DNA of 64,000 nt from a virus. Both the position numbers and the translations under genes were made by a program. The stretch is from positions 1 to 64,000 of the IMG/VR virus record IMGVR_UViG_3300022562_001969; one strand, 5' to 3'. The notes below the pieces were generated by a model. That model was not told the DNA's origin, ran no database searches, and saw nothing but the letters and a program-made list of their open reading frames with translations. Shown piece by piece: positions 8,573 through 39,617 of this stretch (position 1 is its first letter; each line of letters opens with the position of its first letter).

Positions 8573-8670
8573 TTTGGGGAATAAAAAAAGCCCTGGCTAA
8601 AACCAGGGCTTATCCAGACCTAAAGGTTTAAAAACCGGTCAGGTTTGTTAGCTCGCTACGCCGCCGCGTA

Positions 8671-9048
8671 TTACTCGTATTTCGGCAACATCTCAAGCGG
8701 ATCACGGCCGGTTATCCGGCCAAGAGCCGTTTCCCACTCTTCACTACAAAGGGTGTTGTCCATGGCCTCAACGGCCTGGACCAGGGCGCCATCCAGGTCC
8801 AGGAGAGCAATAATGTCTACCGCTCCGCTCGCGTCTCGTTTGGGGTTGGCGGCGAAATCGGTCAAGGCCGTAATGGCCTCGGCTAAACGCCCCAGACCGG
8901 GCAAGTCCACCCCGGGGGCTGCTTCTGTCTCCGGCGCAGCTTCGGGCGACAGGAGCGCCGCCGCCAGCAGGCCAGTGGCCGCCAAAAAACGACGACGGCT
9001 TATTTTGTTGATTAAGTTGGAGAATGTTAAAATAGTTTCAGTCTTCAT
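8671..9048 (-). CDS. small acidic protein with twin-arginine-like N-terminus (paralog of 37336-37728)
   Basis: SRRRFLAATGLLAA; GGGAGG RBS; strong similarity to the 37.3 kb gene. Confidence 0.75.
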   Translation of the reverse strand: MKTETILTFSNLINKISRRRFLAATGLLAAALLSPEAAPETEAAPGVDLPGLGRLAEAITALTDFAANPKRDASGAVDIIALLDLDGALVQAVEAMDNTLCSEEWETALGRITGRDPLEMLPKYE

Positions 9049-9159
9049 CAGTACCTCCCGTACTGTTGTGGATTAGAGCCGGTTTGATGGTTTCAACATC
9101 AGGCCGGCTCGTTCGTTTAAAGTTGACCGCATTATATACCCGAAGTCAGGACAGGTCAA
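9049..9159 (-). promoter_or_regulatory. repeated promoter/leader cassette, copy 1
   Basis: TTGACC-17-TATAAT, downstream GGTCAA inverted repeat, GC hairpin, RBS. Confidence 0.75.
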
Positions 9160-9284
9160 ATTCGCGTCAGATTTTTTTACAACGCTTGCGCCGGCGCACA
9201 TTGCCCTCCCCCAAACTTATGCTAAAATAAACATAACCCAAAACAAAAAGGCGCCCCACCTTAGTAATAGCTGATTCTGCAACT

Positions 9285-10530: not shown

Positions 10531-11538
10531 CTACTGATTCTCACTAGTAAGCGCCCGCTGCGCCTCGTCTAATCGTTGGCCCAGCCCGCCGGCCTGATAG
10601 GCCGCCACCTGTTCCTGATTGCGAAGTTGCAAATACACTTCCGTCATTTTTATGGACCGGTGGCCTAACTGATCTTTAACTTTATGAATCGGAATATTTT
10701 GGTCCATCGCCGCCAAAGCGGATGAATGGCGAAGCGCATGGAATTTGCGATGCGGCAGTCCACAATCGCGACAATGCCGCCGCAACATCTGGTTCAGCGC
10801 ATCGCGGCCCAATGGCTTGCCGATCCCCACCCGCCCCCCATAAGAGACAAACAGTTCGGGCGAGCCGGATCGGGGCCGGATCTGCAACCAGGCCAAAAGC
10901 GCGGCGGCTACCTCATCATCAAAGCCGACGAAACGGTCCCGTTTAGATTTTGAGGTTTCTCGCCGGATGAGGGCCTGGCGACCGGGGATATCGACATCGG
11001 TCAGCTTCAAGCAAACAATCTCATTCGCCCTGGCGCCGGTCACATAGGCAAAATAGATGATGGCGTAATCGCGTTTCACCCGTTCATCCTTCTTAAAAAG
11101 GCTTTTAGCCCGGTTAGCCAAATGACGCAGCAATAGGGCAATTTCCTGATCAGTAAAGGCCGTCGGCGACAGGTCCGGCATCCGGGGGAACATCCCGGCC
11201 AGTTTCATCCGCCGCACCGGGTTCTCATCAACGGATAACAGGCCAACCCCTTCGCAATAGTTGAGAAAGGAGCGCAGATGCCGCCAGTAGTTGTGAACCG
11301 TGGCCTCGCTGTTGGACAGACTGACCGTTTCCAGCCAGTCCATCACCAGGTCAACCGAGGGTGGCCACGGCTCCGCCTCGGCGTACTGGGCGAATAGACG
11401 CAGGACGGAATTGTAGGCGCGGCGGGTGCTGGCCGCTTTGAATCGTTTGGCCCGGTTAAATTGGTCAATGTAGCTTAATAGGTCTGTTTCTGTTTCTTGA
11501 ATCATACCAAACCAATCGACGAGAGGGGTGATTACCAT
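10531..11538 (-). CDS. tyrosine recombinase/integrase 1 (XerC/D-like)
   Basis: TGARANE, SKSK, FHALRH, LGHRSIKMTEVY catalytic set. Confidence 0.92.
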   Translation of the reverse strand: MVITPLVDWFGMIQETETDLLSYIDQFNRAKRFKAASTRRAYNSVLRLFAQYAEAEPWPPSVDLVMDWLETVSLSNSEATVHNYWRHLRSFLNYCEGVGLLSVDENPVRRMKLAGMFPRMPDLSPTAFTDQEIALLLRHLANRAKSLFKKDERVKRDYAIIYFAYVTGARANEIVCLKLTDVDIPGRQALIRRETSKSKRDRFVGFDDEVAAALLAWLQIRPRSGSPELFVSYGGRVGIGKPLGRDALNQMLRRHCRDCGLPHRKFHALRHSSALAAMDQNIPIHKVKDQLGHRSIKMTEVYLQLRNQEQVAAYQAGGLGQRLDEAQRALTSENQ

Positions 11539-23856: not shown

Positions 23857-23893
23857 GTTTCAATCTCTCATTCGAGATAATCGGCCTTTGAAC
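23857..23893 (-). CRISPR. isolated perfect copy of the 37-bp array-1 repeat
   Basis: Identical to the repeats at 25478-26098; adjacent partial GTTTCAATC duplication at 23847. Confidence 0.9.
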
Positions 23894-24038
23894 GCGGCGT
23901 AGGCCGGGGCCGGCGCTCGCAAGGGAATGACGCCCGGCCGCTCGGCCGCGCCAGGCGCTAACCCCAACCAGACCAGGAGGCCCAACAAGCCCAGCAGCCC
24001 CCATTTGATATATGACAAAATATGGCTATAATTCATCT

Positions 24039-24123
24039 TAGTCTTTACTCCTCTCTTTATACGTCAGGAGTTTGGATAATGAGTGAAGCCCCCCGCCTAT
24101 CAGTAAAGCGGGGGACTTTTTTT
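24039..24123 (+). ncRNA. candidate small RNA with own promoter and intrinsic terminator
   Basis: TTGATA(24005)-16-TATAAT(24027); ACTCCT/AGGAGT stem; CCCCCGC/GCGGGGG stem plus T7. Confidence 0.45.
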
Positions 24124-24146
24124 ATGATCTGATTGGTAACCCCCTA

Positions 24147-24431
24147 TTAAGGATTTCTGTATATATCGTGATGCCCAATTTTTCTGAAAACAAAGGTAAT
24201 TTCGCCAGTTTCGTCGTCTTCTTCCCGGTGAAATGTAAAGACATACCCAAGTGTTATATGGCCTTCCCAGATATCAGAATGTCCCTTCATTGGCTTAATC
24301 CGTAATGAGGGATGATAAGGATGGAAAGGCTGTTCTTTGAATAACTTAAAGCTTTTTTTTGCTTGGTCTCGAATGTCAGTCGGCAATTGCTCAAAACACT
24401 TGCGAAAATGCCGGGTTACACGATATTTCAT
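24147..24431 (-). CDS. RelE/ParE-superfamily toxin
   Basis: TRHFRKCFEQLP...HPSLRIKPMKG..IWEGHI...IGHHDIY. Confidence 0.82.
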   Translation of the reverse strand: MKYRVTRHFRKCFEQLPTDIRDQAKKSFKLFKEQPFHPYHPSLRIKPMKGHSDIWEGHITLGYVFTFHREEDDETGEITFVFRKIGHHDIYRNP

Positions 24432-24441
24432 TATTGATAGG

Positions 24442-24765
24442 TTATAATGTCTCCAGGAAACCATCGAGCGAGTCAAAATCTTCGTACTGTCCGGTTTGTA
24501 AGTCGCGTTCAACTTCGCGTTCCCCGGCTTGCCATTCCGGTGTCCAGAACCAGGCCTGGGTTTGATCGGTTTCAACCGTTATCAAGCTGGAGGATGTATA
24601 TATATTGGCGATCAATTGGCCGGTCATTACATTATTTCGCACATCAAATATATAAAAACAGGCCGGCGGTTGTCCCCATTCTTCTTCGCCAGGATGACTA
24701 TGAATAAAAATAGCGGCTGATCCTTCTTCACTTGAAGCCAGCGTTTTGGTGTTACTTTCAATCAT
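24442..24765 (-). CDS. antitoxin-like protein
   Basis: C-terminal QAWFWTPEWQAGEREVERDL motif typical of antitoxins upstream of this RelE type. Confidence 0.7.
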   Translation of the reverse strand: MIESNTKTLASSEEGSAAIFIHSHPGEEEWGQPPACFYIFDVRNNVMTGQLIANIYTSSSLITVETDQTQAWFWTPEWQAGEREVERDLQTGQYEDFDSLDGFLETL

Positions 24766-25441
24766 GGTTGTTCCCCTGTATAAATGTTTTGACTTGATTT
24801 TCAATAAACCTGTCAACCTCGGTGATCCGGTCTGTTGGCTTAAATTCCCCTGTTTGTACCCACTTAAAAATAGCCTCGATAAAGAATTGTTTTGTATTCC
24901 CTAGATATGACTCTATTTTGATCTCTATTTGCGGCGAACCATCATCAGTGTGGGGCATAACAAATCTAAGCCCCCCCCCCAGAATTGGCCTGCCAAATAT
25001 GGATAATGACGCTTCAGGCTGTCTTAAGCGAGTGACCCATAATTCTTGAAATGCATGGTCACCTGAAGCTTGATAAAGATAACGAATAGATGCGTCACAA
25101 GATAAAATCTGACGCGATCCTGTCCAGGTAGACCGGAAAGCTTGAATAACCATATCGACGATTCTGGAAAATTCATCCGGTATATAGGTCGGATTAGGGT
25201 TAGCGATTATGAGTAACTGGCCGATAGGAGCATCAATATTGGCCCCAATTTTTATTTGAAGCGGCGGCGTCTTTTTGAGAATCAGTATCCCATTATCAGC
25301 TGTTAGCTCACCTCTATCATAATCAACGCCAGCGTTCAATATCGCTTGTTGAAAGGCGATCAATCGTTGTTTATTTATTTCAGGTGGGGGGGATAAAACA
25401 TAATTAATTCCTAAATGTAACAAAACCCCTTCATCATGCAT
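24758..25441 (-). CDS. hypothetical protein, TIGR04255-like, first gene of the TA operon
   Basis: 227 aa, AT-rich, coupled to antitoxin; family by resemblance only. Confidence 0.55.
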   Translation of the reverse strand: MHDEGVLLHLGINYVLSPPPEINKQRLIAFQQAILNAGVDYDRGELTADNGILILKKTPPLQIKIGANIDAPIGQLLIIANPNPTYIPDEFSRIVDMVIQAFRSTWTGSRQILSCDASIRYLYQASGDHAFQELWVTRLRQPEASLSIFGRPILGGGLRFVMPHTDDGSPQIEIKIESYLGNTKQFFIEAIFKWVQTGEFKPTDRITEVDRFIENQVKTFIQGNNHD

Positions 25442-25477
25442 TCCTTAAACCCCTTTCTGTAAAAGTTTTGAAGATGA

Positions 25478-26098
25478 GTTTCAATCTCTCATTCGAGATA
25501 ATCGGCCTTTGAACCTGACGCAAAAAGCGGCGCAAAAAATGGCGCAGATTGAGTTTCAATCTCTCATTCGAGATAATCGGCCTTTGAACAGCATCTAACC
25601 ACATCTAGCAATAGGCAAAAAAGAGGTTTCAATCTCTCATTCGAGATAATCGGCCTTTGAACATAAAAATAGTATACCATAAATTTGCCGAGTGTGCAGT
25701 TTCAATCTCTCATTCGAGATAATCGGCCTTTGAACTGATGTTAAGATTGTGGGGACGGTGGCCAGCTTGTTGTTTCAATCTCTCATTCGAGATAATCGGC
25801 CTTTGAACCAGATAATGGCCAAGGTTGCCAAGTATTACGGTGTGTTTCAATCTCTCATTCGAGATAATCGGCCTTTGAACAGGACAAATGAGCGGAATTG
25901 TAGAGGTTGTAAACGGGTTTCAATCTCTCATTCGAGATAATCGGCCTTTGAACAGTGACGATCCACTAGCAGGCGCAACTTTTTAAGGAGTTTCAATCTC
26001 TCATTCGAGATAATCGGCCTTTGAACGCGGGCGCAATTGGATGAGGCCATCAATGAGGCGGGTTTCAATCTCTCATTCGAGATAATCGGCCTTTGAAC
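25478..26098 (-). CRISPR. CRISPR array 1: 9 identical 37-bp repeats, 8 spacers of 35-38 bp (I-D/III-like)
   Basis: Minus-strand repeat GTTCAAAGGCCGATTATCTCGAATGAGAGATTGAAAC ends in the ATTGAAAC handle. Confidence 0.97.
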
Positions 26099-27205: not shown

Positions 27206-27234
27206 GTTTTCCCCACAGGCGTGGGGGTGAACCG
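27206..27234 (+). CRISPR. solitary type I-E-like repeat abutting an RBS
   Basis: GTTTTCCCCACAGGCGTGGGGGTGAACCG followed directly by GGAGGAGCT-ATG. Confidence 0.85.
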
Positions 27235-31549: not shown

Positions 31550-33199
31550 TTATATCTCCAACCGCCCTTGTGTTGGCCCTGCTCTTTCTTCTCTTTGGGC
31601 TTGTTTGAAGGTTCCATAGGCGGGCGGCATTTGTACACTTGCCCCCCCTAACAACGCCTCAATGGTAAGTATCTGAATTTTAGGGTATTTTTGGCCCCAG
31701 GCTACAGCCTCATAAAAACCGGCTGACACCGCCTCCTGGATCATCGGCTGCGTTGGTTCTTCCAGGGTGATAAAAACGCCGATAGCCGCCTTTTCCCGTT
31801 CAACCGTCCCAACCAGATCACGAATATCCCGGCTTGACACCTTGCCGCTCTTGACTTGCGCTAAAACCCGCTTAGGTTTGCCTTTTGCCGTATCAATAAA
31901 GGTGATAACCCCATCGATCCCTTTATCCGCTCCTTTTTTGCCCTTTTTACTGCCCTGGGTCGCTTTGCCCGGTCTGGCCCTAACTAACGACAAGGCCCAC
32001 CATTCAAACTGAAAGCGGTCTTGTTCTGCCAGAAAACGAGCAGAGCCTATTGTTTCAGGCTCGCCCTTGACTTCAAACGTTGTGTCCGGAAAGGCTTCTT
32101 GTAGACGATATTTTTGCAAGGCAATAGATAAATGGGTGATGTCAATACCTATCCACTTTCGGCCTAGTTTTTCAGCGGCTACTATCGCAGTACCACAACC
32201 GCAAAATGGATCAAGGACTACATCACCAGGGTTGCTACTGGCTGAAATGATACGTTCTAGTAAAGGTAAAGGTTTTTGTGTAGGATAACCCAGACGTTCA
32301 GCATCAGAACTTTGCAAAGGATTTATATCAGCCCAAATGTTTGTAATAATTGTTCCTTTTTGTTCGTTCAAAAAACGTTTAAGCGCAGGACGTTTACTAA
32401 AATCATAGGAACCATCTTTGTGACGTGGATAATAAATGCGCCCTTCATCGTGTAACTTTTGCATGGTTTCAGGTTTATAACGCCAACCTTTAGCAGGATA
32501 CGGAAAGCCTAGCCATTCGTACATCATATTGGGTCTAGGATTTGGACTTGTCATATTATCCAAACGATATAAACCGCGTCCATTATTATCATCAAATCGG
32601 TAATTTTTTTGGATATATTCCAAATCATATGGTCCATATTGAACAATAAACAGGTTTTTTTTGGAACGTTTATAAAAAAGAATTATGTCAGCAATATCAG
32701 CAAATTTCGTCTTTGCGTCACTATGGGCTGACTGTCGTTTCCAAATAATTTCATTGCCAAAGTTCTCAGCCCCAAAAATAGTATCAAGGATGACCTTCAA
32801 ATAATGGCTTGCTGTTGGGTCACAATGCAGATATAAGCTACCAGTAGGGTTCAATACCCGATGAAGTTCAACCAATCGACTAGCCATCATAACCAAATAA
32901 GCCATCATTTGGTTAGCGCCAATAAAATCACGCATGGCCCCAATCATCTTACTTATATGATCTGGTGATTCTGTTATCAATTCGTGATAGGTTTCCTCAG
33001 CGGCCGCGTTCCAGTGCCAAGTATCATCAAAAGCCGTTATCTGCGCCTGGCTATCTTGCCCACTTTCATCTTTGAATAAGACATTATAGCTGCGCTTTGA
33101 GTTAAAGGGGGGGTCAAGATAGACTAAATCAATACTTTCATCTGCTATGTAATCACGTAGAATTTGAAGGTTATCGCCATAATAAAGGGTATTTTTCAT
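31550..33199 (-). CDS. N6-adenine/N4-cytosine DNA methyltransferase fused to an Mrr-like endonuclease domain
   Basis: DPPF, YPTQKP, DPFCGCGT; C-terminal DKGIDG...QVKSG. Confidence 0.9.
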   Translation of the reverse strand: MKNTLYYGDNLQILRDYIADESIDLVYLDPPFNSKRSYNVLFKDESGQDSQAQITAFDDTWHWNAAAEETYHELITESPDHISKMIGAMRDFIGANQMMAYLVMMASRLVELHRVLNPTGSLYLHCDPTASHYLKVILDTIFGAENFGNEIIWKRQSAHSDAKTKFADIADIILFYKRSKKNLFIVQYGPYDLEYIQKNYRFDDNNGRGLYRLDNMTSPNPRPNMMYEWLGFPYPAKGWRYKPETMQKLHDEGRIYYPRHKDGSYDFSKRPALKRFLNEQKGTIITNIWADINPLQSSDAERLGYPTQKPLPLLERIISASSNPGDVVLDPFCGCGTAIVAAEKLGRKWIGIDITHLSIALQKYRLQEAFPDTTFEVKGEPETIGSARFLAEQDRFQFEWWALSLVRARPGKATQGSKKGKKGADKGIDGVITFIDTAKGKPKRVLAQVKSGKVSSRDIRDLVGTVEREKAAIGVFITLEEPTQPMIQEAVSAGFYEAVAWGQKYPKIQILTIEALLGGASVQMPPAYGTFKQAQREERAGPTQGRLEI

Positions 33200-33575
33200 T
33201 GGTTGACCACCTGACCAGGCCAGGCTATAACAAATGGCAAGTGAACGGTTCACCATCATGCCCGTGGAGAATACCCTGATTTTATCCGAGTTTGGGATGA
33301 CAGGCAAAAAAGACGGTCGTCCATCGTCCATCGCCCATCGTCGGTTACTTGTTTTCAGGCCAAAAGGGTATATAATTGATTTAGCGACATTTTGGCTTGA
33401 TAGTCTGATCAAGATATAATAGTAAAAGAAGCTCCAACCTCTGACAGGCTATCTGTCCAAAGTGTCGCAACTTGAGAGGTCTGGGGCTTCTTTTTGGTGC
33501 TTCAGGATTTTCCGTGGGAACCACTATATCGCCATACAAGAAAAGTAAGCCAACTTTCAAAGATAGGTTCGCAAG

Positions 33576-35627
33576 ATGACTGAAAGCCGCCAACCTGGTA
33601 GGAATTTTAGGGATGAATTACTTAAGATTTTGTCAGGGATGACCGCTTTGGATGACCCTGACAACCGATATCGGCTATTGGACAAGTTGCCACTAGAGGC
33701 AGTAGCAACCATACGACGCAATTCTGCTAAGGGGACCGACCTATACAATATCGTTCAGGCTGCCGAAGGATGGGGACAATTGACCTCTGGAGAGTGGGCC
33801 TTGGTCGTTATCGCCCAAAACGCCCTATCTCTAGTTAAAGGAACCCACCCCGGTCGTCAGCTAGAGGCTCTTTTAGCTGAAAGGGTTATTCATCAGGCCA
33901 AGCCAGGCCGGCAGATCCCCCTTGATCTGCCAGCGCGAGAGGAGAATTTTATAGACCGTAAGGACGAACTGGTATCTCTACTCACCGAATTACAACCAGG
34001 ACGAGTAGTCACTTTGACTGGGCCGGGGGGCATGGGCAAGACTGCCCTGGCCGCGGAAGCCGTTGGCCAACTGGTGGTTGATCATAAGCCCCCTGAGCGT
34101 TTCCCGGATGGCATCTTCTTTCATAGCTTTTACAACCAACCCCAAGCCGGTTTAGCCCTGGAAAGTCTGGCCCTGGCCTTTGGCGAGGAAGCCAGGCCAA
34201 CGGCCCAGGTAGCGGCACAACGGGCGTTGAGCGGCCGGCAGGCCTTATTGGTGTTGGATGGCGCTGAAGATGCGGATGACTTGGCGGCCGTGTTAGCGGT
34301 GCGCGGGGGGTGTGGGGTTTTAATAACCAGCCGTAATCGGGGCGATGCGCCGGCCGTGTTGCAAGACCTGGCGCCCCTCAAACAGCAAGACGCCCTGGAC
34401 TTATTACAACGCTGGGCTGAAGCGCAGCTTGATGACCAGGCGGCGGCCATTGCCATCTGCGAACTGGTGGGGAGGCTGCCGCTGGCGGTGCGTCTGGTAG
34501 GGCGGTATCTGCGTGAGACCGGGGAGACGGCCAGCGAGTATCTAGCCTGGTTACAAGAAACCCCGTTAGAGGCCCTGAACCAGGGGCGGCGACGCGAAGA
34601 AAGTATACCTGTCTTACTTGAGCGCAGTCTAAAGCAGGTCAGTGAGGCGGCGCGGCAAGTGTTGGCGGTGGCCGGCCGGCTGGCGCTGGCCCCGCTGCAA
34701 CAAGAGGTGATGGGGGCCGCTTTGGCAGCCGAAGCGCGTGAGGTGAGACAGTGGTTAGGAGAATTGGTGCGCTATGGCTTGCTGAGCCGGGACAAAGGGC
34801 GTTATGCCATCAGTCACGCCCTCATTCACACCTACGCCAGTGAGCGGCTCAATGTGGCGGAGGAGATGGTCGAGCGGTTGGTGGCTTTCTATGTCGCTTT
34901 GGCTGAACACTTTAGCCAGCAAGGATTGGCAGGCTACCAGGCGCTTGATGGGGAGCGGCCTCACCTGCTGCGCTTGATTGCAGGCTGCGCGAAAGGAGAT
35001 GATTGGCTGGGGGTTCGCAAGCTGGTCTGGGCCATTGATGGTTATTTGTCAATTCAGGGTCACGCCAGCGAACGACAAACTGCCCTAGCGACAGGGCTAA
35101 CAGCCGCCCAACAACTGGGCGACCGCCAAGATGAAGGGGCATTTTTAGGCAGCCTGGGGACCGCCTACTACGACCAGGGGGAGCTGGACAAAGCCATCGC
35201 CCATTCTCAGCAAGCCCTGGTCATCCACCGCGAGATTGGCTACCGCCAGGGGGAGGCTGCTGTTTTAGGCTACCTGGGAACCGCCTACAGCATCCAGGGG
35301 GAGCTGGCCAAAGGCATCGACCATTATCAGCAAGCCCTGGTCATCCACCGCGAGATTGGCTACCGCCAGGGGGAGGCTTATAATTTAGGCATCCTGGGTC
35401 TCGCCTACCGCGCCCAGGGGGAGAGGGCCAAAGCCAGAGAATACTTAGCCCAGGCGCTCACTATTTTTGAGGCGATCAAATCGCCCCAGGCAGACGCAAT
35501 TCGTGAACAGTTGACTATGCTGACTATGTTAGGCCGCCTCCATATACTCTTAGCAATGTGTCAGGCCATCTACGAGAAAGGATTGATGAGGCAGCTTTTG
35601 CCGCTTTTCAAAAGGCTTATTCACTAA
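33576..35627 (+). CDS. NLR-like STAND protein: effector-associated-like N-domain, NB-ARC, TPR repeats
   Basis: GPGGMGKT, LLVLDGAE, LITSR, GRLPLAV; 40-aa TPR repeats. Confidence 0.88.
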   Translation: MTESRQPGRNFRDELLKILSGMTALDDPDNRYRLLDKLPLEAVATIRRNSAKGTDLYNIVQAAEGWGQLTSGEWALVVIAQNALSLVKGTHPGRQLEALLAERVIHQAKPGRQIPLDLPAREENFIDRKDELVSLLTELQPGRVVTLTGPGGMGKTALAAEAVGQLVVDHKPPERFPDGIFFHSFYNQPQAGLALESLALAFGEEARPTAQVAAQRALSGRQALLVLDGAEDADDLAAVLAVRGGCGVLITSRNRGDAPAVLQDLAPLKQQDALDLLQRWAEAQLDDQAAAIAICELVGRLPLAVRLVGRYLRETGETASEYLAWLQETPLEALNQGRRREESIPVLLERSLKQVSEAARQVLAVAGRLALAPLQQEVMGAALAAEAREVRQWLGELVRYGLLSRDKGRYAISHALIHTYASERLNVAEEMVERLVAFYVALAEHFSQQGLAGYQALDGERPHLLRLIAGCAKGDDWLGVRKLVWAIDGYLSIQGHASERQTALATGLTAAQQLGDRQDEGAFLGSLGTAYYDQGELDKAIAHSQQALVIHREIGYRQGEAAVLGYLGTAYSIQGELAKGIDHYQQALVIHREIGYRQGEAYNLGILGLAYRAQGERAKAREYLAQALTIFEAIKSPQADAIREQLTMLTMLGRLHILLAMCQAIYEKGLMRQLLPLFKRLIH

Positions 35628-35929: not shown

Positions 35930-36128
35930 TTGGACGATGGACGACCGGCGGCGACTTAAGACTGCGGCCGCCCATCGTCCATCGTCCATCGTCGCCAAGG
36001 CGAAGCGACCACCGACGACACAACACCGCCGCCCATCGTCCATCGTCCATCGTCGCCAAGGCGAAGCGACCACCGACGACACAACACCGCCGCCCGCCGT
36101 CCATCGTCTATCGTCCATCGTCCGTCGT
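35930..36128. repeat. heptamer REP/STRR-like tract (GACGATG/CATCGTC)
   Basis: Also near 17.1, 26.1, 26.8, 29.8, 31.5, 33.3, 38.0-38.46 and 39.3 kb. Confidence 0.8.
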
Positions 36129-37049
36129 CAGCCCCCGGTACGCCCGGGCCCGGGCCTCATCCCGGCCGCGCAGATAGACCGAAGTCGTGGCGATGTCCGC
36201 ATGGCCCAATTGGTCGCGCACCTTGTCCAGGGAGACGCCGGCTTCGAGGGCCAGCAAAGCCGAGGTGTGGCGCAGGGCGTGAAAGTAAGCCCGGGGCAAG
36301 CCGGCCGCCCTGGCCCGGCGCTTGAACAGTTGGCTCACCCCGGAGGCGGTCAGGCCGGGCCCCGGGCGGCCCCAGCGCCAGGCCGGGAAGACATGAGCGG
36401 GCCGGTGGCCACCCTCGGCCAGATAACGTTGCCAGGCCCACAAATCCCCTTTGACCGCCAAATTAAAATAGACCACCCGCCCCCGGCGCGTCTTGGCCGT
36501 CTCCGCCGCCACCTCGGCGGCCAGCTCGGCCAGGCGCAGTTGCTCCCAGCGCAGGGCGGCCACTTCCCCGGCCCGGCAGCCGGTGACCAGGGCAAAATGG
36601 ACCAGGGCCAGGTCGCGCAGCTCACGCCCCTCGCCGGCGGCGGCCGCCCGGCGCAACTGGGCCAGCAGGCGCTCCACTTCGGCCCGGCTGAGGGCCACCG
36701 GCGGCAGGTGGGGCCGGGGCGGCAAGAGGCGCAATTGGGCAATTTGCCGGGTCGGGTTGCGGTTGGCCTCAATGATCTCTAATTGTTCCAAAAAGTTGAA
36801 AAATGCGCGCAGGTGGGTATAATAGGTGCGCACCGTCACCTCTCCACCGGCGGTGGAGTCTATCCAGCCCATTACCTGACCGGCCGTGACCGGCCAGGCC
36901 GGGCCGATGTAGTCGGCGAAGCGGCTTAAGATATTGGTGTAGTTCTGTAGCGTCTTCGGCCGCCACGAACGTCTCTTGAGAGTGATAAAACCTTTAATGT
37001 GCCCTCCCAGAATGGTATCCGGGAGGGACACAGAAGGCGGCGTAGCCAT
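36108..37049 (-). CDS. tyrosine recombinase/integrase 2 (paralog of 10531-11538)
   Basis: TGCRAGE, AKT, FHALRH, LGHADIATTSVY. Confidence 0.92.
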   Translation of the reverse strand: MATPPSVSLPDTILGGHIKGFITLKRRSWRPKTLQNYTNILSRFADYIGPAWPVTAGQVMGWIDSTAGGEVTVRTYYTHLRAFFNFLEQLEIIEANRNPTRQIAQLRLLPPRPHLPPVALSRAEVERLLAQLRRAAAAGEGRELRDLALVHFALVTGCRAGEVAALRWEQLRLAELAAEVAAETAKTRRGRVVYFNLAVKGDLWAWQRYLAEGGHRPAHVFPAWRWGRPGPGLTASGVSQLFKRRARAAGLPRAYFHALRHTSALLALEAGVSLDKVRDQLGHADIATTSVYLRGRDEARARAYRGLTTDDGR

Positions 37050-37071
37050 ACGATTGGAGGCTCCGGAGAGA

Positions 37072-37152
37072 CTTCGGAGTCAAAACCTTTAGGTTTTTCT
37101 TCGGAGTCGAAACCTTTAGGTTTTTCTTCGGAGTCAAAACCTTTAGGTTTTT
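37072..37152. repeat. 3 x 27-bp tandem repeat upstream of recombinase 2
   Basis: CTTCGGAGTC(A/G)AAACCTTTAGGTTTTT x3. Confidence 0.92.
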
Positions 37153-37222
37153 CAAGCCTGAAGGCTTGGACTCCTCTATTCCGGAGTCGAAACCGGTTCA
37201 CCCCCACGTCTGTGGGGAATAC
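37153..37222 (-). CRISPR. solitary type I-E-like repeat (37194-37222) plus 25-nt spacer-like segment and hairpin
   Basis: GTATTCCCCACAGACGTGGGGGTGAACCG, then GTTTCGACTCCGGAATAGAGGAGTC, then CAAGCC-TTCA-GGCTTG. Confidence 0.8.
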
Positions 37223-37335
37223 GGGCTCCGGTTAATGCCCAAACCTAAAGGCTTGGACTCCTTTGAGCCTTTGAGCCTTTGAGCCTAAAATAAAAACCTG
37301 ACCGGTTTTTGAAACCAGTCAGGTTTGTTACCTCG

Positions 37336-37728
37336 CTACGCCGCCGTGCGTTGCTGGTATTCCACCAGCATCTCGACCGGATCGCGGCCGGCCACGCGGC
37401 CCAGGGCCTCTTCCCAGTCGCCGCTGTGGAGGATGGCGTTGAGGGATTCGACGGCCTGCACCAGGGCCACCTCAAGGTCCAGCAGGGCGACGATGTCCAC
37501 CGCCCCACTCGCCTCTCTGGTAGGGTTGGCGGCGAAGTCAGTCAGGGCCGCAATGGCCTCGACCAGTCTCGCCAGCCCGGGCAACTCAGCGCCGGGGGCT
37601 ACTTCTGCTTCCGGCGCCAGCTCGCCCAACGCCAGGCTGGCCGCCAGCAGACCGGTTGCCGCCAGAAATCCGCGACGGTCTATTTGGTTGTTGGTTTGGG
37701 GGTGTGCTAAAATACGTTCAGTTCTCAT
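37336..37728 (-). CDS. small acidic protein with twin-arginine-like N-terminus (paralog of 8671-9048)
   Basis: DRRGFLAATGLLAA; GAGGAG RBS. Confidence 0.75.
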   Translation of the reverse strand: MRTERILAHPQTNNQIDRRGFLAATGLLAASLALGELAPEAEVAPGAELPGLARLVEAIAALTDFAANPTREASGAVDIVALLDLEVALVQAVESLNAILHSGDWEEALGRVAGRDPVEMLVEYQQRTAA

Positions 37729-37913
37729 GGTAAGCTCCTCTTACTGTGTGAATTAGGGCCGGTTTGATGTTTCAGCATCAGGCCGGCTCGTTCGTTTAAA
37801 GTTGACCACATTATATGCCCAAACTCAGCATTAGTCAAATCCGGCTCAGGATTTATTTTTTTACGACGCTTGCGGCTGGCCGCCGGGCGACGTATACTAA
37901 TAGTAGCTCTCAT
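37725..37913 (-). CDS. small basic peptide (62 aa)
   Basis: Strong RBS CACAGTAAGGAG, but the ORF overlaps the downstream promoter. Confidence 0.35.
   Translation of the reverse strand: MRATISIRRPAASRKRRKKINPEPDLTNAEFGHIMWSTLNERAGLMLKHQTGPNSHSKRSLP
37729..37838 (-). promoter_or_regulatory. repeated promoter/leader cassette, copy 3
   Basis: TTGACT-17-TATAAT, GGTCAA, hairpin nearly identical to copy 1. Confidence 0.75.
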
Positions 37914-37982
37914 GGTATCTCCTTACTGTGAGAGTATGGTTTCGCCTCGTTTTTTAGCCCGCGAGGCGAAGCCTGTTTTTTT

Positions 37983-38277
37983 GGACGATAGACGATGGAC
38001 GATGGACGGCGGGCGGCGGTTTGACGGGCGGCGGTCGTCCATCGTCGGTCGTCGCTTCGCCTTGACGACGATAGACGATGGACGGCGGTTTGACGGTCGT
38101 CGGTCGTCCATCGTCGGTCGTCACTTTGCCTTGGCGACGCTAGACGATAGACGATAGACCGCGGTTTGACGGTCGTCTATCGTCCATCGTCGGTCGTCAC
38201 TTCGCCTTGGCGACGCTAGACGATAGACGATGGATGGCTGTATGGCATCGTCGGTCGTCGGTCGTCGGTCGTCGTTC
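37983..38277. repeat. heptamer REP/STRR-like inverted tract
   Basis: GACGATAGACGATGGACG and its complement repeated. Confidence 0.8.
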
Positions 38278-38377
38278 CGCCAGGCGTCAACTTGTTTGGA
38301 TAGCATACCTCTACGTAGGTCTCCCGTTAGGTTTCCGTTTTGCCGGTTTGGTAAAACGGCCTTGCTGGGGGGGGATT

Positions 38378-38407
38378 ATCGTATCATAGGTGGGGGGGAT
38401 CTGTCAA
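38378..38407 (-). promoter_or_regulatory. sigma70 promoter
   Basis: TTGACA-18-TACGAT with TGn extended -10. Confidence 0.6.
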
Positions 38408-38495
38408 GCGGTTTTAAGCTTCGCGACGATGGACGATAGACGACCGGCGACTAACGACGACCGTCTCTTTTGTTTATTTGTTTATTTGTTTATTT

Positions 38496-38854
38496 ATTTC
38501 AATCCACGCCCCCCGTGAGGGGAGCGACTTCGGTGAAGGAAAAAATTCCTTAACCGATGGGGTTTCAATCCACGCCCCCCGCGAGGGGAGCGACATAAAA
38601 ACAGGCTTCGCTTTGCGGGCTATTTCAATCCACGCCCCCCGCGAGGGGAGCGACTTGGCCGGTCAAGGTGATCCGCCAACCGGTTGCGGTTTCAATCCAC
38701 GCCCCCCGCGAGGGGAGCGACTTGCTGAAACGTTCGTGGTAGACTGTTTCAGTTTGTTTCAATCCACGCCCCCCACAAGGGGAGCGACGCGACCAGCTCA
38801 TCACTATCCAATTCAAAAAGCGTTTCAATCCACGCCCCCCACAAGGGGAGCGAC
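38496..38854 (-). CRISPR. CRISPR array 2: type I-C-like, 6 repeats of 33 bp, spacers of 33, 27, 34, 34, 33 bp
   Basis: Minus-strand repeat GTCGCTCCCCTCGCGGGGGGCGTGGATTGAAAC with variants. Confidence 0.95.
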
Positions 38855-39020
38855 GGCAACATCTGGGTATACCCAGATTATACATAATATATATTGTGGC
38901 GCCTTTTTTGTCAATCGGACAACCGGCTCAATATTGCTCGCTAAATGTTCTTTTTTGGGGTGGTTAAGGTACAAAATAGGCGCGAACCCTCCGGGCAATG
39001 GCTGGGCGCTTGGGGTTCGC
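38855..39020 (-). promoter_or_regulatory. type I-C leader
   Basis: AT-rich segment with GCGAACC...GGTTCGC inverted motif typical of I-C leaders. Confidence 0.65.
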
Positions 39021-39041
39021 AAACCCAGATTAAAGGATGAT

Positions 39042-39124
39042 CGGTTCACCCCCACGCCTGTGGGGAATACTCGTCCATCGTCCATCGTCGCGAAGCGGTT
39101 CACCCCCCCGCCTGTGGGGAATAC
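39042..39124 (-). CRISPR. type I-E-like mini-array: two 29-bp repeats, one 25-bp spacer
   Basis: Repeats at 39042-39070 and 39096-39124; spacer 39071-39095. Confidence 0.9.
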
Positions 39125-39311
39125 GCTCCAAAACGTTATAAAGTTTTAATGTTACAACCGTTCGCTAGCTTAGAACACGGATATGGGGAGGGTAACGGAT
39201 TTTCGACCTGGCTATAAGTAATCCGTTACCTTCTGCCAATCCGCTGTTCTCAAGCTAACCGTGCAATAGCAGCAACGCCCAAACGGTCGTCCATCGTCCA
39301 TCGTCAGCCGT

Positions 39312-39617
39312 CTATCGTCCACCGTCCATCGTCACCCCCGGGCAGCCTTCGACAAGCTCAGGCTGCTGCGGTCGTCCATCGTCGGTCGTCCATCGTCGGT
39401 CGTCCATCGTCGCCCCCCGGGCGGCCAGCGCCGTATTAAGCGCCTTGAGTTCCGCCTCAAGATCACCTATTTTTTTTTGCAAAGCGGTTTCGTTGGCGGC
39501 CATCTTGGCCAACCGCTTCTCCAGGGTAATATTCAGGAGAAGCGCCTGGCTTAATAGTGAGCCCCAGCGTTGGCCGAGGGTATCGACCAGCTCCAAAATT
39601 TGCTGTTCGGTCATCAT
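39312..39617 (-). CDS. small coiled-coil protein (3' end runs into a REP tract)
   Basis: Coupled to the upstream ORF. Confidence 0.5.
   Translation of the reverse strand: MMTEQQILELVDTLGQRWGSLLSQALLLNITLEKRLAKMAANETALQKKIGDLEAELKALNTALAARGATMDDRRWTTDDGRPQQPELVEGCPGVTMDGGR

Follow-up and report, generated by a model that had tools for sequence, protein, structure and literature searches.

The stretch of DNA analysed here (the window) covers the initial 64 kb of virus record IMGVR_UViG_3300022562_001969, a single sequence of 86,114 bp. The record is a temperate siphovirus-like phage whose host is probably a member of the Chloroflexota. Upstream of the gene for a tyrosine integrase ('recombinase 2') lie a lone type I-E repeat, a type I-C CRISPR (short palindromic repeats, clustered and regularly interspaced) array and a type I-E mini-array (Table 1), and two shortened spacers among them match non-coding DNA of the same phage close by. 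An initial annotation of the window had proposed that a cas-less element programs the I-E and I-C Cascades of its host with such guides and thereby silences one of its own gene clusters. The re-analysis described below retains the guides and their matched sites, and it leads to a different view of what they might control.

Table 1. Features of the phage genome at and around the locus, in window positions.
Feature	Position	Strand	Remarks
Tyrosine integrase ('recombinase 2')	36108-37049	minus	Pfam
Three 27-bp tandem units	37072-37153	minus	each with AAG and a 12-nt seed site; 26-94 bp upstream of the integrase start
Guide-like flank of lone repeat 37194	37169-37193	minus	only the first 12 nt match the tandem sites
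Lone I-E repeat	37194-37222	minus	loop variant AGAC; 144 nt upstream of the integrase ATG
130-aa protein gene	37336-37728	minus	match to TAT signal model weak, under Pfam cut-off
Site matched by 27-nt I-C spacer, with TTT	37953-37982	plus	3' half and T-run of a plus-strand terminator-like hairpin
Three tandem 69-76-bp hairpin units of heptamer TCGTCCA and variants	37982-38274		repeat analysis
Promoter-like site	38378-38407	minus	TTGACA-18-TACGAT; reads into the heptamer hairpin leader
Site matched by I-E spacer, with AAG	38416-38443	plus	half a heptamer-hairpin element; motif 8 bp from the -35 box of the promoter-like site
Type I-C array	38496-38854	minus	6 repeats; spacers of 33, 27, 34, 34 and 33 nt
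Full-length I-C spacer 1 (33 nt)	38529-38561	minus	matches contig 82892-82924 (ParB-HTH-like gene, outside the window) at 30/33
27-nt I-C spacer	38595-38621	minus	fourth of five counting from the leader
Strong promoter-like site in I-C leader	38886-38914	minus	TTGACA-17-TATATT, 11/12
Type I-E mini-array	39042-39124	minus	two repeats and a 25-nt spacer (39071-39095); just upstream of the I-C leader
Second integrase	10531-11538		Pfam
Lone I-E repeat	27206-27234		repeat search
Degenerate lone I-E repeat	33246-33274		repeat search

The I-C array, the I-E mini-array and the lone I-E repeats are all on the minus strand and in canonical orientation. The leader-proximal end of the I-C array is at 38854, and its repeat variants differ in the loop. 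In the mini-array, repeat 2 (39042-39070) is perfect and identical to Chloroflexota I-E repeats; repeat 1 (39096-39124) carries one T-to-G change that alters the hairpin stem and has an intact 8-nt 5' handle. The three lone repeats, the degenerate one included, show 0-1 mismatch to Chloroflexota I-E repeats. The RNA around lone repeat 37194 is predicted to be strongly structured, with four hairpins (z = -5.0). A promoter scan gave no promoter-like site directly upstream of 37222 or of 39124. No cas family was matched in ~60 phage open reading frames (ORFs) scanned with Pfam, which comprise nearly all ORFs longer than ~190 amino acids (aa).

Spacer lengths were compared with those of host-lineage arrays, represented by roughly 520 I-E and 155 I-C spacers. 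The I-E spacers of this lineage measure 32-33 nt, ~3% of them being 28 nt or shorter and mostly from one decayed array; the I-C spacers measure 32-39 nt, with 0/155 at 31 nt or shorter. The two short phage spacers are shortened by 7 nt for I-E (25 vs 32) and by 6-7 nt for I-C (27 vs 33-34). Three guides of 25, 27 and 25 nt had been listed before, each said to be shorter by about one Cas7 step of 6 nt. The first two lengths are confirmed, and so is the shortening, which is not a clean 6 nt in either case; the third guide, the flank of lone repeat 37194, has no 3' boundary, so that its '25 nt' is a guess, and it matches over just 12 nt.

The coordinates and match counts of the three pairings proved right on re-check. 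Read in the sense of the CRISPR RNA (crRNA), the 25-nt I-E spacer equals plus-strand positions 38419-38443 at 24/25, with the mismatch at guide position 20 and AAG directly 5' of the matched site (38416-38418). The 27-nt I-C spacer matches 37956-37982 at 24/27 (mismatches at guide positions 8, 10 and 26), with TTT at 37953-37955; this site is ~30 nt upstream of the ribosome-binding site (RBS) of a doubtful 62-aa ORF. The 12 nt that follow lone repeat 37194 on the minus strand are found at 12/12 at 37102-37113 and at 11/12 at 37075-37086 and 37129-37140, every copy being preceded by AAG, in the three tandem units before the integrase gene, each of which also holds a short palindrome. A protospacer-adjacent motif (PAM) and a seed match are thus present at all three places, the I-E site being 8 bp upstream of a -35 box and the I-C site in a leader. 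The motif is on the correct side for each subtype (AAG for I-E, TTT for I-C) and all matched sites are non-coding, as the initial annotation had stated. Guide positions 1-7 are fully matched in both short spacers, the shortening being at the PAM-distal end, and it is these two spacers and no others that have targets within ~0.63 kb. Among the five lone or trailing repeat flanks in the phage, PAM-flanked seed sites (three) were found for that of 37194 alone, and 0/38 lone or mini-array units of a host-lineage chromosome had seed sites within their own locus.

The full-length I-C spacer 1 has a different kind of self-match. The earlier statement that no full-length spacer has a match is true inside the window and fails for the rest of the contig, where spacer 1 matches the ParB-HTH-like gene listed in Table 1. 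That copy has ACC in the place of the PAM, and its three mismatches are guide positions 2-4. In this, spacer 1 has the classical appearance of a spacer that is directed at the phage's own kind and that the carrier has itself escaped through changes in PAM and seed. The pattern is opposite in the short spacers, in which PAM and seed are kept, and in spacer 1, in which both are destroyed. Spacer 1 is itself near-palindromic.

The short matches differ in how easily they could arise. The 24/27 I-C match cannot be chance: by our own estimate ~1e-6 such matches are expected in the contig, and no repeat family is involved. The I-E spacer is built of the phage heptamer TCGTCCA and its variants, and among 1126 25-mers of heptamer repeat, 29% have a partner at 24/25 or better in the contig and 3/1126 have such a partner with AAG in the PAM place. 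We concluded that the I-E match alone is cheap in heptamer DNA, and that the match plus PAM is not.

Downstream of the matched sites the products are the doubtful 62-aa ORF, the 130-aa protein and the integrase. The gene for the 130-aa protein has its own near-consensus promoter, TTGACT-17-TATAAT, at 37838-37810, downstream of the I-C target, and a strong terminator (37326-37294) lies between this gene and the integrase leader; the promoter scan found no promoter for the integrase. A paralog of the 130-aa gene at 8674-9048 is 66% identical and has the same promoter and the same hairpin in the 5'-untranslated region (5'-UTR). The supposed 'cluster' is three separate transcription units. The targets had been described as lying in order along one minus-strand cluster that is silenced as a whole; the separate promoter and the terminator contradict that arrangement, and together they rule out a cluster-wide switch. 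The paralogous genes belong to a duplicated cassette (8590-9200 and 37290-37870) that consists of the near-consensus promoter, the conserved 5'-UTR hairpin and a 125/130-aa protein, each copy being within 0.3-1.5 kb of one of the two integrases.

Promineifilaceae and Caldilineaceae genomes contain array repeats identical to the phage I-E repeat, other Chloroflexota contain near-identical ones, and Cse1 is encoded in 5/5 tested genomes that carry the repeat. The I-C repeat has one mismatch to the repeat of a 58-repeat array in an Anaerolineae-class genome. In genome G102 a close variant of the I-C repeat is on the same contig as Csd1, ~14 kb apart; in genome G345, which has the closest I-C repeat and may be incomplete, no Csd1 was found. 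With the subtypes assigned through the Cse1 and Csd1 genomes, and with no cas family in the scanned ORFs, the description of a cas-less element carrying repeats of two subtypes stands. The leaders of the phage arrays have no match in the host loci. No match to the guides was found in the cse1 upstream regions of five candidate I-E genomes or in 46 I-E loci, nor to the I-C guide in five candidate I-C genomes.

We favor the explanation, at a probability of roughly 0.4, that the short spacers are crRNA-like regulatory guides acting on the phage's own DNA, a variant of the CreA/CreR/Cracr RNAs. The broader proposition, that the cas-less phage uses host I-E and I-C Cascade as transcription factors for its own genome and that the resulting expression reports the presence or activity of the CRISPR effectors, is put forward more tentatively still. 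In such a scheme the phage would make RNAs for the host type I-E and I-C effectors, and the two short spacers, perhaps also the flank of lone repeat 37194, would belong to the CreA/CreR/Cracr kind of regulatory guide. Host Cascade loaded with them would form smaller complexes that are parked on PAM-flanked phage sites without productive Cas3 cutting: beside the -35 box of the promoter at 38407-38378, on the leader hairpin at 37956-37982, and on the three tandem sites before the integrase gene. The outcome would be a Cascade-dependent damping of read-through from the upstream promoter and of integrase expression, not whole-cluster silencing, and expression of these units would report whether the effectors are active or, for example, blocked by a competitor's anti-CRISPR. 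That the phage senses the anti-CRISPRs of a superinfecting phage in this way is pure speculation. For the full-length I-C spacers the role would be the usual one of competing with related phages, and spacer 1 would fit this, as PAM and seed are lost in the copy of its target that the phage carries.

Several features are consistent with regulatory guides. The defects of the short spacers leave untouched the PAM and positions 1-7, on which a regulator depends, and take away the distal length that is required for cutting. An intact PAM and PAM-proximal seed against nearby sites is the design of the known regulatory crRNA-like RNAs, and a damaged first repeat with an intact handle followed by a perfect second repeat is their usual build. 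The same I-E repeat is found in ordinary array units in the source sample. In a Phototrophicaceae genome a CreR-like two-repeat mini-array, with degenerate I-E repeats and a 32-nt spacer, lies ~150-200 bp upstream of cse1, the position in which CreR-type autoregulators are described, and this too was counted in favor. The initial annotation took it as settled that Cascade with truncated or partly matched guides binds with little or no cutting by Cas3. The precedents are divided: in type I-B of Haloarcula a 24-bp spacer represses without interference (PMC10989794), and in E. coli I-E spacers of more than 20 nt still give interference and priming (PMC5159557).

The E. coli result is the first of a number of points that weigh against self-directed regulation, as by that measure a 24/25 match with AAG could be suicidal and not regulatory. 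The geometry of the targets is not ideal either. The I-E target is placed upstream of the -35 box, without overlap with the promoter at 38407-38378; the 130-aa gene escapes control because the I-C target is upstream of the gene's own promoter; and the 62-aa ORF is doubtful since in the paralogous cassette it is out of frame and not conserved. The closeness of the matches and their PAMs would be explained by the preference of adaptation for PAM-flanked DNA next to active arrays, and the 7-nt loss in the heptamer-repeat spacer could stem from replication slippage. For the third guide, the palindrome in each 27-bp unit suggests that the units may be protein-binding sites, the 12-nt seed pairs with the upstream flank in the predicted RNA fold, and lone repeat 37194 resembles a wider class of 5'-leader lone I-E repeats that have no nearby seed match (0/38). 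A host with both subtypes and matching repeats had been anticipated; Cse1 and Csd1 genomes were indeed found, each separately, and 0/10 candidate genomes have both repeat types together. A comparison of 667 spacers from host-lineage arrays with the phage gave no convincing match. The phage collection gave no match, and IMG/VR yielded distant matches only, without the repeats, when queried with the integrase, the 130-aa protein, a tail protein, both spacer sequences, the short-spacer I-E pattern and the I-E repeat.

Some of these points fit better with an origin by adaptation. It is unlikely, yet it deserves serious attention, that the short spacers are leftovers of self- or kin-derived spacers: host adaptation would have supplied the phage-borne arrays with PAM-flanked fragments from the phage itself or from near kin, and the surviving carriers would be those in which truncation, mismatches in the target, a weaker PAM or damage to a repeat had disarmed them, with no regulatory role. 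Spacer 1 serves here as proof that the I-C array includes spacers directed at the gene pool of the phage itself, the matched site bearing escape changes in PAM and seed. The short spacers bear marks that could be read as damage, namely the weak TTT motif (the usual I-C PAM is TTC), the mismatches at positions 8 and 10, the T-to-G change in I-E repeat 1 and the 7-nt loss in the heptamer spacer; in addition, two G-to-A differences of the 27-nt spacer are in a stem arm, as expected for the variant hairpin of a relative. Related viruses are the usual targets of viral arrays (PMC6858448; PMC11656645), and spacer uptake hotspots adjoin active arrays in E. coli and Pyrococcus (PMC5737086). Escape, however, normally hits the PAM or seed or deletes the spacer, whereas here the seeds and AAG are intact and the distal ends are gone, and according to the E. 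coli data a 25-nt I-E spacer is not disarmed by length alone (PMC5159557). An origin as leftovers also leaves unexplained the lone repeat with its three PAM-flanked seed sites, and the viral collection yielded no external relative that has an exact protospacer. If the spacers are disabled self-acquired ones, they would provide a clear case of a phage-borne array taking spacers from its carrier, and of the containment of that damage.

Alternatively, the elements could be RNA anti-CRISPRs, with Cracr guides directed at host cas or creT promoters, Racr decoys soaking up Cas6e, Cas7 and Cas5, and self-matches that are incidental. We regard this as rather improbable, even with its good precedents: Cracrs are phage-borne, have 21-24-nt I-E spacers, are sometimes found inside longer arrays and include I-E and I-C examples (10.1101/2024.10.29.618823), and Racrs are solitary repeats in viral genomes, also with validated I-E and I-C examples (PMC10651486). 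The phage carries at least three lone I-E or I-E-like repeats, its repeats are identical or near-identical to those of the host lineage, and the 37194 region is predicted to fold into a compact structured RNA. The failure of the guides to match the candidate-host cse1 upstream regions, I-E loci and I-C genomes speaks against host-directed guides, weakly as the evidence comes from candidate hosts only; moreover, the PAM-flanked, near-complete self-matches must then be coincidence (~0.3% for the I-E one), and neither the lone repeats nor the mini-array have an evident promoter directly upstream. A by-product of repetitive DNA is the least credible of these readings. The I-E spacer and its target would then be members of the heptamer family, the lone repeat would sit inside a protein-binding tandem array, and the PAMs would be luck; in a minor variant, the I-C array would be a mobile or invertible cassette with 25-nt inverted repeats on either side. 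The I-E spacer and its matched site do form a 25-nt inverted repeat around the I-C array, the heptamer family is scattered over both accessory regions and often provides partners (29% of the heptamer-derived 25-mers at 24/25 or better), the tandem units hold a palindrome and adjoin the integrase gene as integrase arm or operator sites might, and AAG precedes 2/27 registers of the tandem unit. AAG is correctly placed, however, for just 3/1126 heptamer 25-mers, the 24/27 I-C match involves no repeat family, and three independent coincidences, each with the right motif and all from guide position 1, are jointly unlikely. Inversion joints were not seen either, in contigs whose cover does not extend to this region.

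Other parts of the contig are typical of a tailed temperate phage. The Pfam scan of ORFs identified structural genes for a terminase, a tape-measure protein, Dit and a Gp37-like tail protein; a portal-like match is weak and under the Pfam cut-off. Further genes encode two tyrosine integrases, ParB-like proteins, a sigma factor, a ribonucleotide reductase, sugar-modification proteins, DNA methylases and a STAND NTPase. No Rfam family was matched in the 23-40 kb region, and PHROGs gave no function for the small ORFs neighbouring the arrays. Genes of defence type are present in two accessory regions (31550-35627 and 648-2204): one encodes a methylase with a fused Mrr-like nuclease domain, another an NB-ARC/TPR STAND NTPase that carries an effector-associated domain, and there is a pair of prokaryotic E2 and JAB proteins. 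The heptamer hairpins (30 runs, e.g., 35967-36135, 37982-38274 and 39287-39406) mark the junctions of accessory cassettes over 17119-39406 and contig positions 80357-85583, and the structural module (40-80 kb) has none of these elements. They resemble the promoter-early stem-loop junction elements of T4-type phages. In a metagenome scan the integrase reached 31% identity at best. Two sediment runs from another study gave contigs in which parts of the integrase, of the 130-aa gene and of the leader recur at 90-95% identity, the arrays being outside their cover. An 8-nt spacer start common to the lone-repeat flank and an IMG/VR mini-array led to no host target and was taken as chance.

A third array (25478-26098) consists of nine identical 37-nt repeats with spacers of 35-38 nt. 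One more identical copy of the repeat is 1.58 kb from it (region 23857-26098), with two or three small ORFs without family matches between them; the genome collection gave no exact match to the 37-nt repeat, which is also absent from the candidate host genomes.

Lone repeats are common in the host lineage as well. A 6.1-Mb Anaerolineae chromosome (OZ241372.1) has >25 loci with solitary or two-copy I-E repeats outside its big arrays, and 11/30 of these repeats precede a long ORF in sense orientation, 3-60 nt from its start codon, compared with four in the control direction. The phage lone repeats are placed likewise: one abuts an RBS, and the others precede the ATG of a methylase by ~55 nt and that of the integrase by 144 nt. 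In this lineage, lone CRISPR repeats may act as 5'-leader elements. A Phototrophicaceae contig (CBDBOC010000001.1) contains I-E arrays with spacers of 3 to 52 nt and partial repeats inside 'spacers', which suggests decay or rearrangement.

In cells, crRNA-like RNAs are known as regulators of cas genes and toxins, and phage copies described recently silence host cas or toxin promoters. If the short spacers of IMGVR_UViG_3300022562_001969 are self-directed guides, they would represent a third use, in which host CRISPR effectors act as sensor and repressor in a phage circuit with two subtype inputs. Such a circuit would bear on how temperate phages read the immunity status of their host, and the spacers would be natural examples of length-tuned guides that bind without cutting.

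Among documented systems, one likeness is to virus-borne mini-arrays (PMC6858448), which are cas-less arrays with host repeats and spacers against the carrier's own kind, a description that I-C spacer 1 would fit; those spacers are full length and aimed at competitors, whereas the short phage spacers keep PAM and seed against the carrier itself. Self-targeting autoimmunity (PMC6990116; PMC5737086) similarly involves spacers that match carrier DNA near the array, with PAMs and with defects, but the defects found here are a distal shortening that spares PAM and seed, which is not the usual escape route. Racrs (PMC10651486) share with lone repeat 37194 the solitary host-like repeat in a viral genome and the structured RNA around it. 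They sequester Cas proteins and need no target, in contrast to the phage lone repeat with its three PAM-flanked seed sites, which moreover has no obvious promoter of its own.

CreA and CreR, known from CreTA and from cas autorepression (PMC10120712), would have in common with the phage elements a guide gene near a PAM-flanked target that is itself near a promoter, seed-anchored pairing, and a degenerate first repeat with an intact handle, and they use Cascade as a repressor. They are located inside cellular cas loci, control cas genes or a toxin and pair partially, whereas the phage has no cas locus or identified toxin and two of its pairings are nearly full length (24/25 and 24/27). The closest documented class is the viral Cracr RNAs, phage mini-arrays whose 21-24-nt I-E spacers make Cascade repress the cas or creT promoters of the host (10.1101/2024.10.29.618823). 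Like the elements described here, they are phage-encoded outside a cas locus, have a repeat-spacer-repeat build and carry shortened spacers; they form smaller Cascade complexes that bind and do not cut, and they can sit in multi-spacer arrays. A Cracr is recognized by a match of at least nine PAM-proximal spacer bases to the target of host CreR or CreA, which it mimics; the phage guides matched the phage's own DNA only and no candidate-host promoter. If the favored explanation is right, the two short spacers would be a variant of the crRNA-like regulators and not a separate category.

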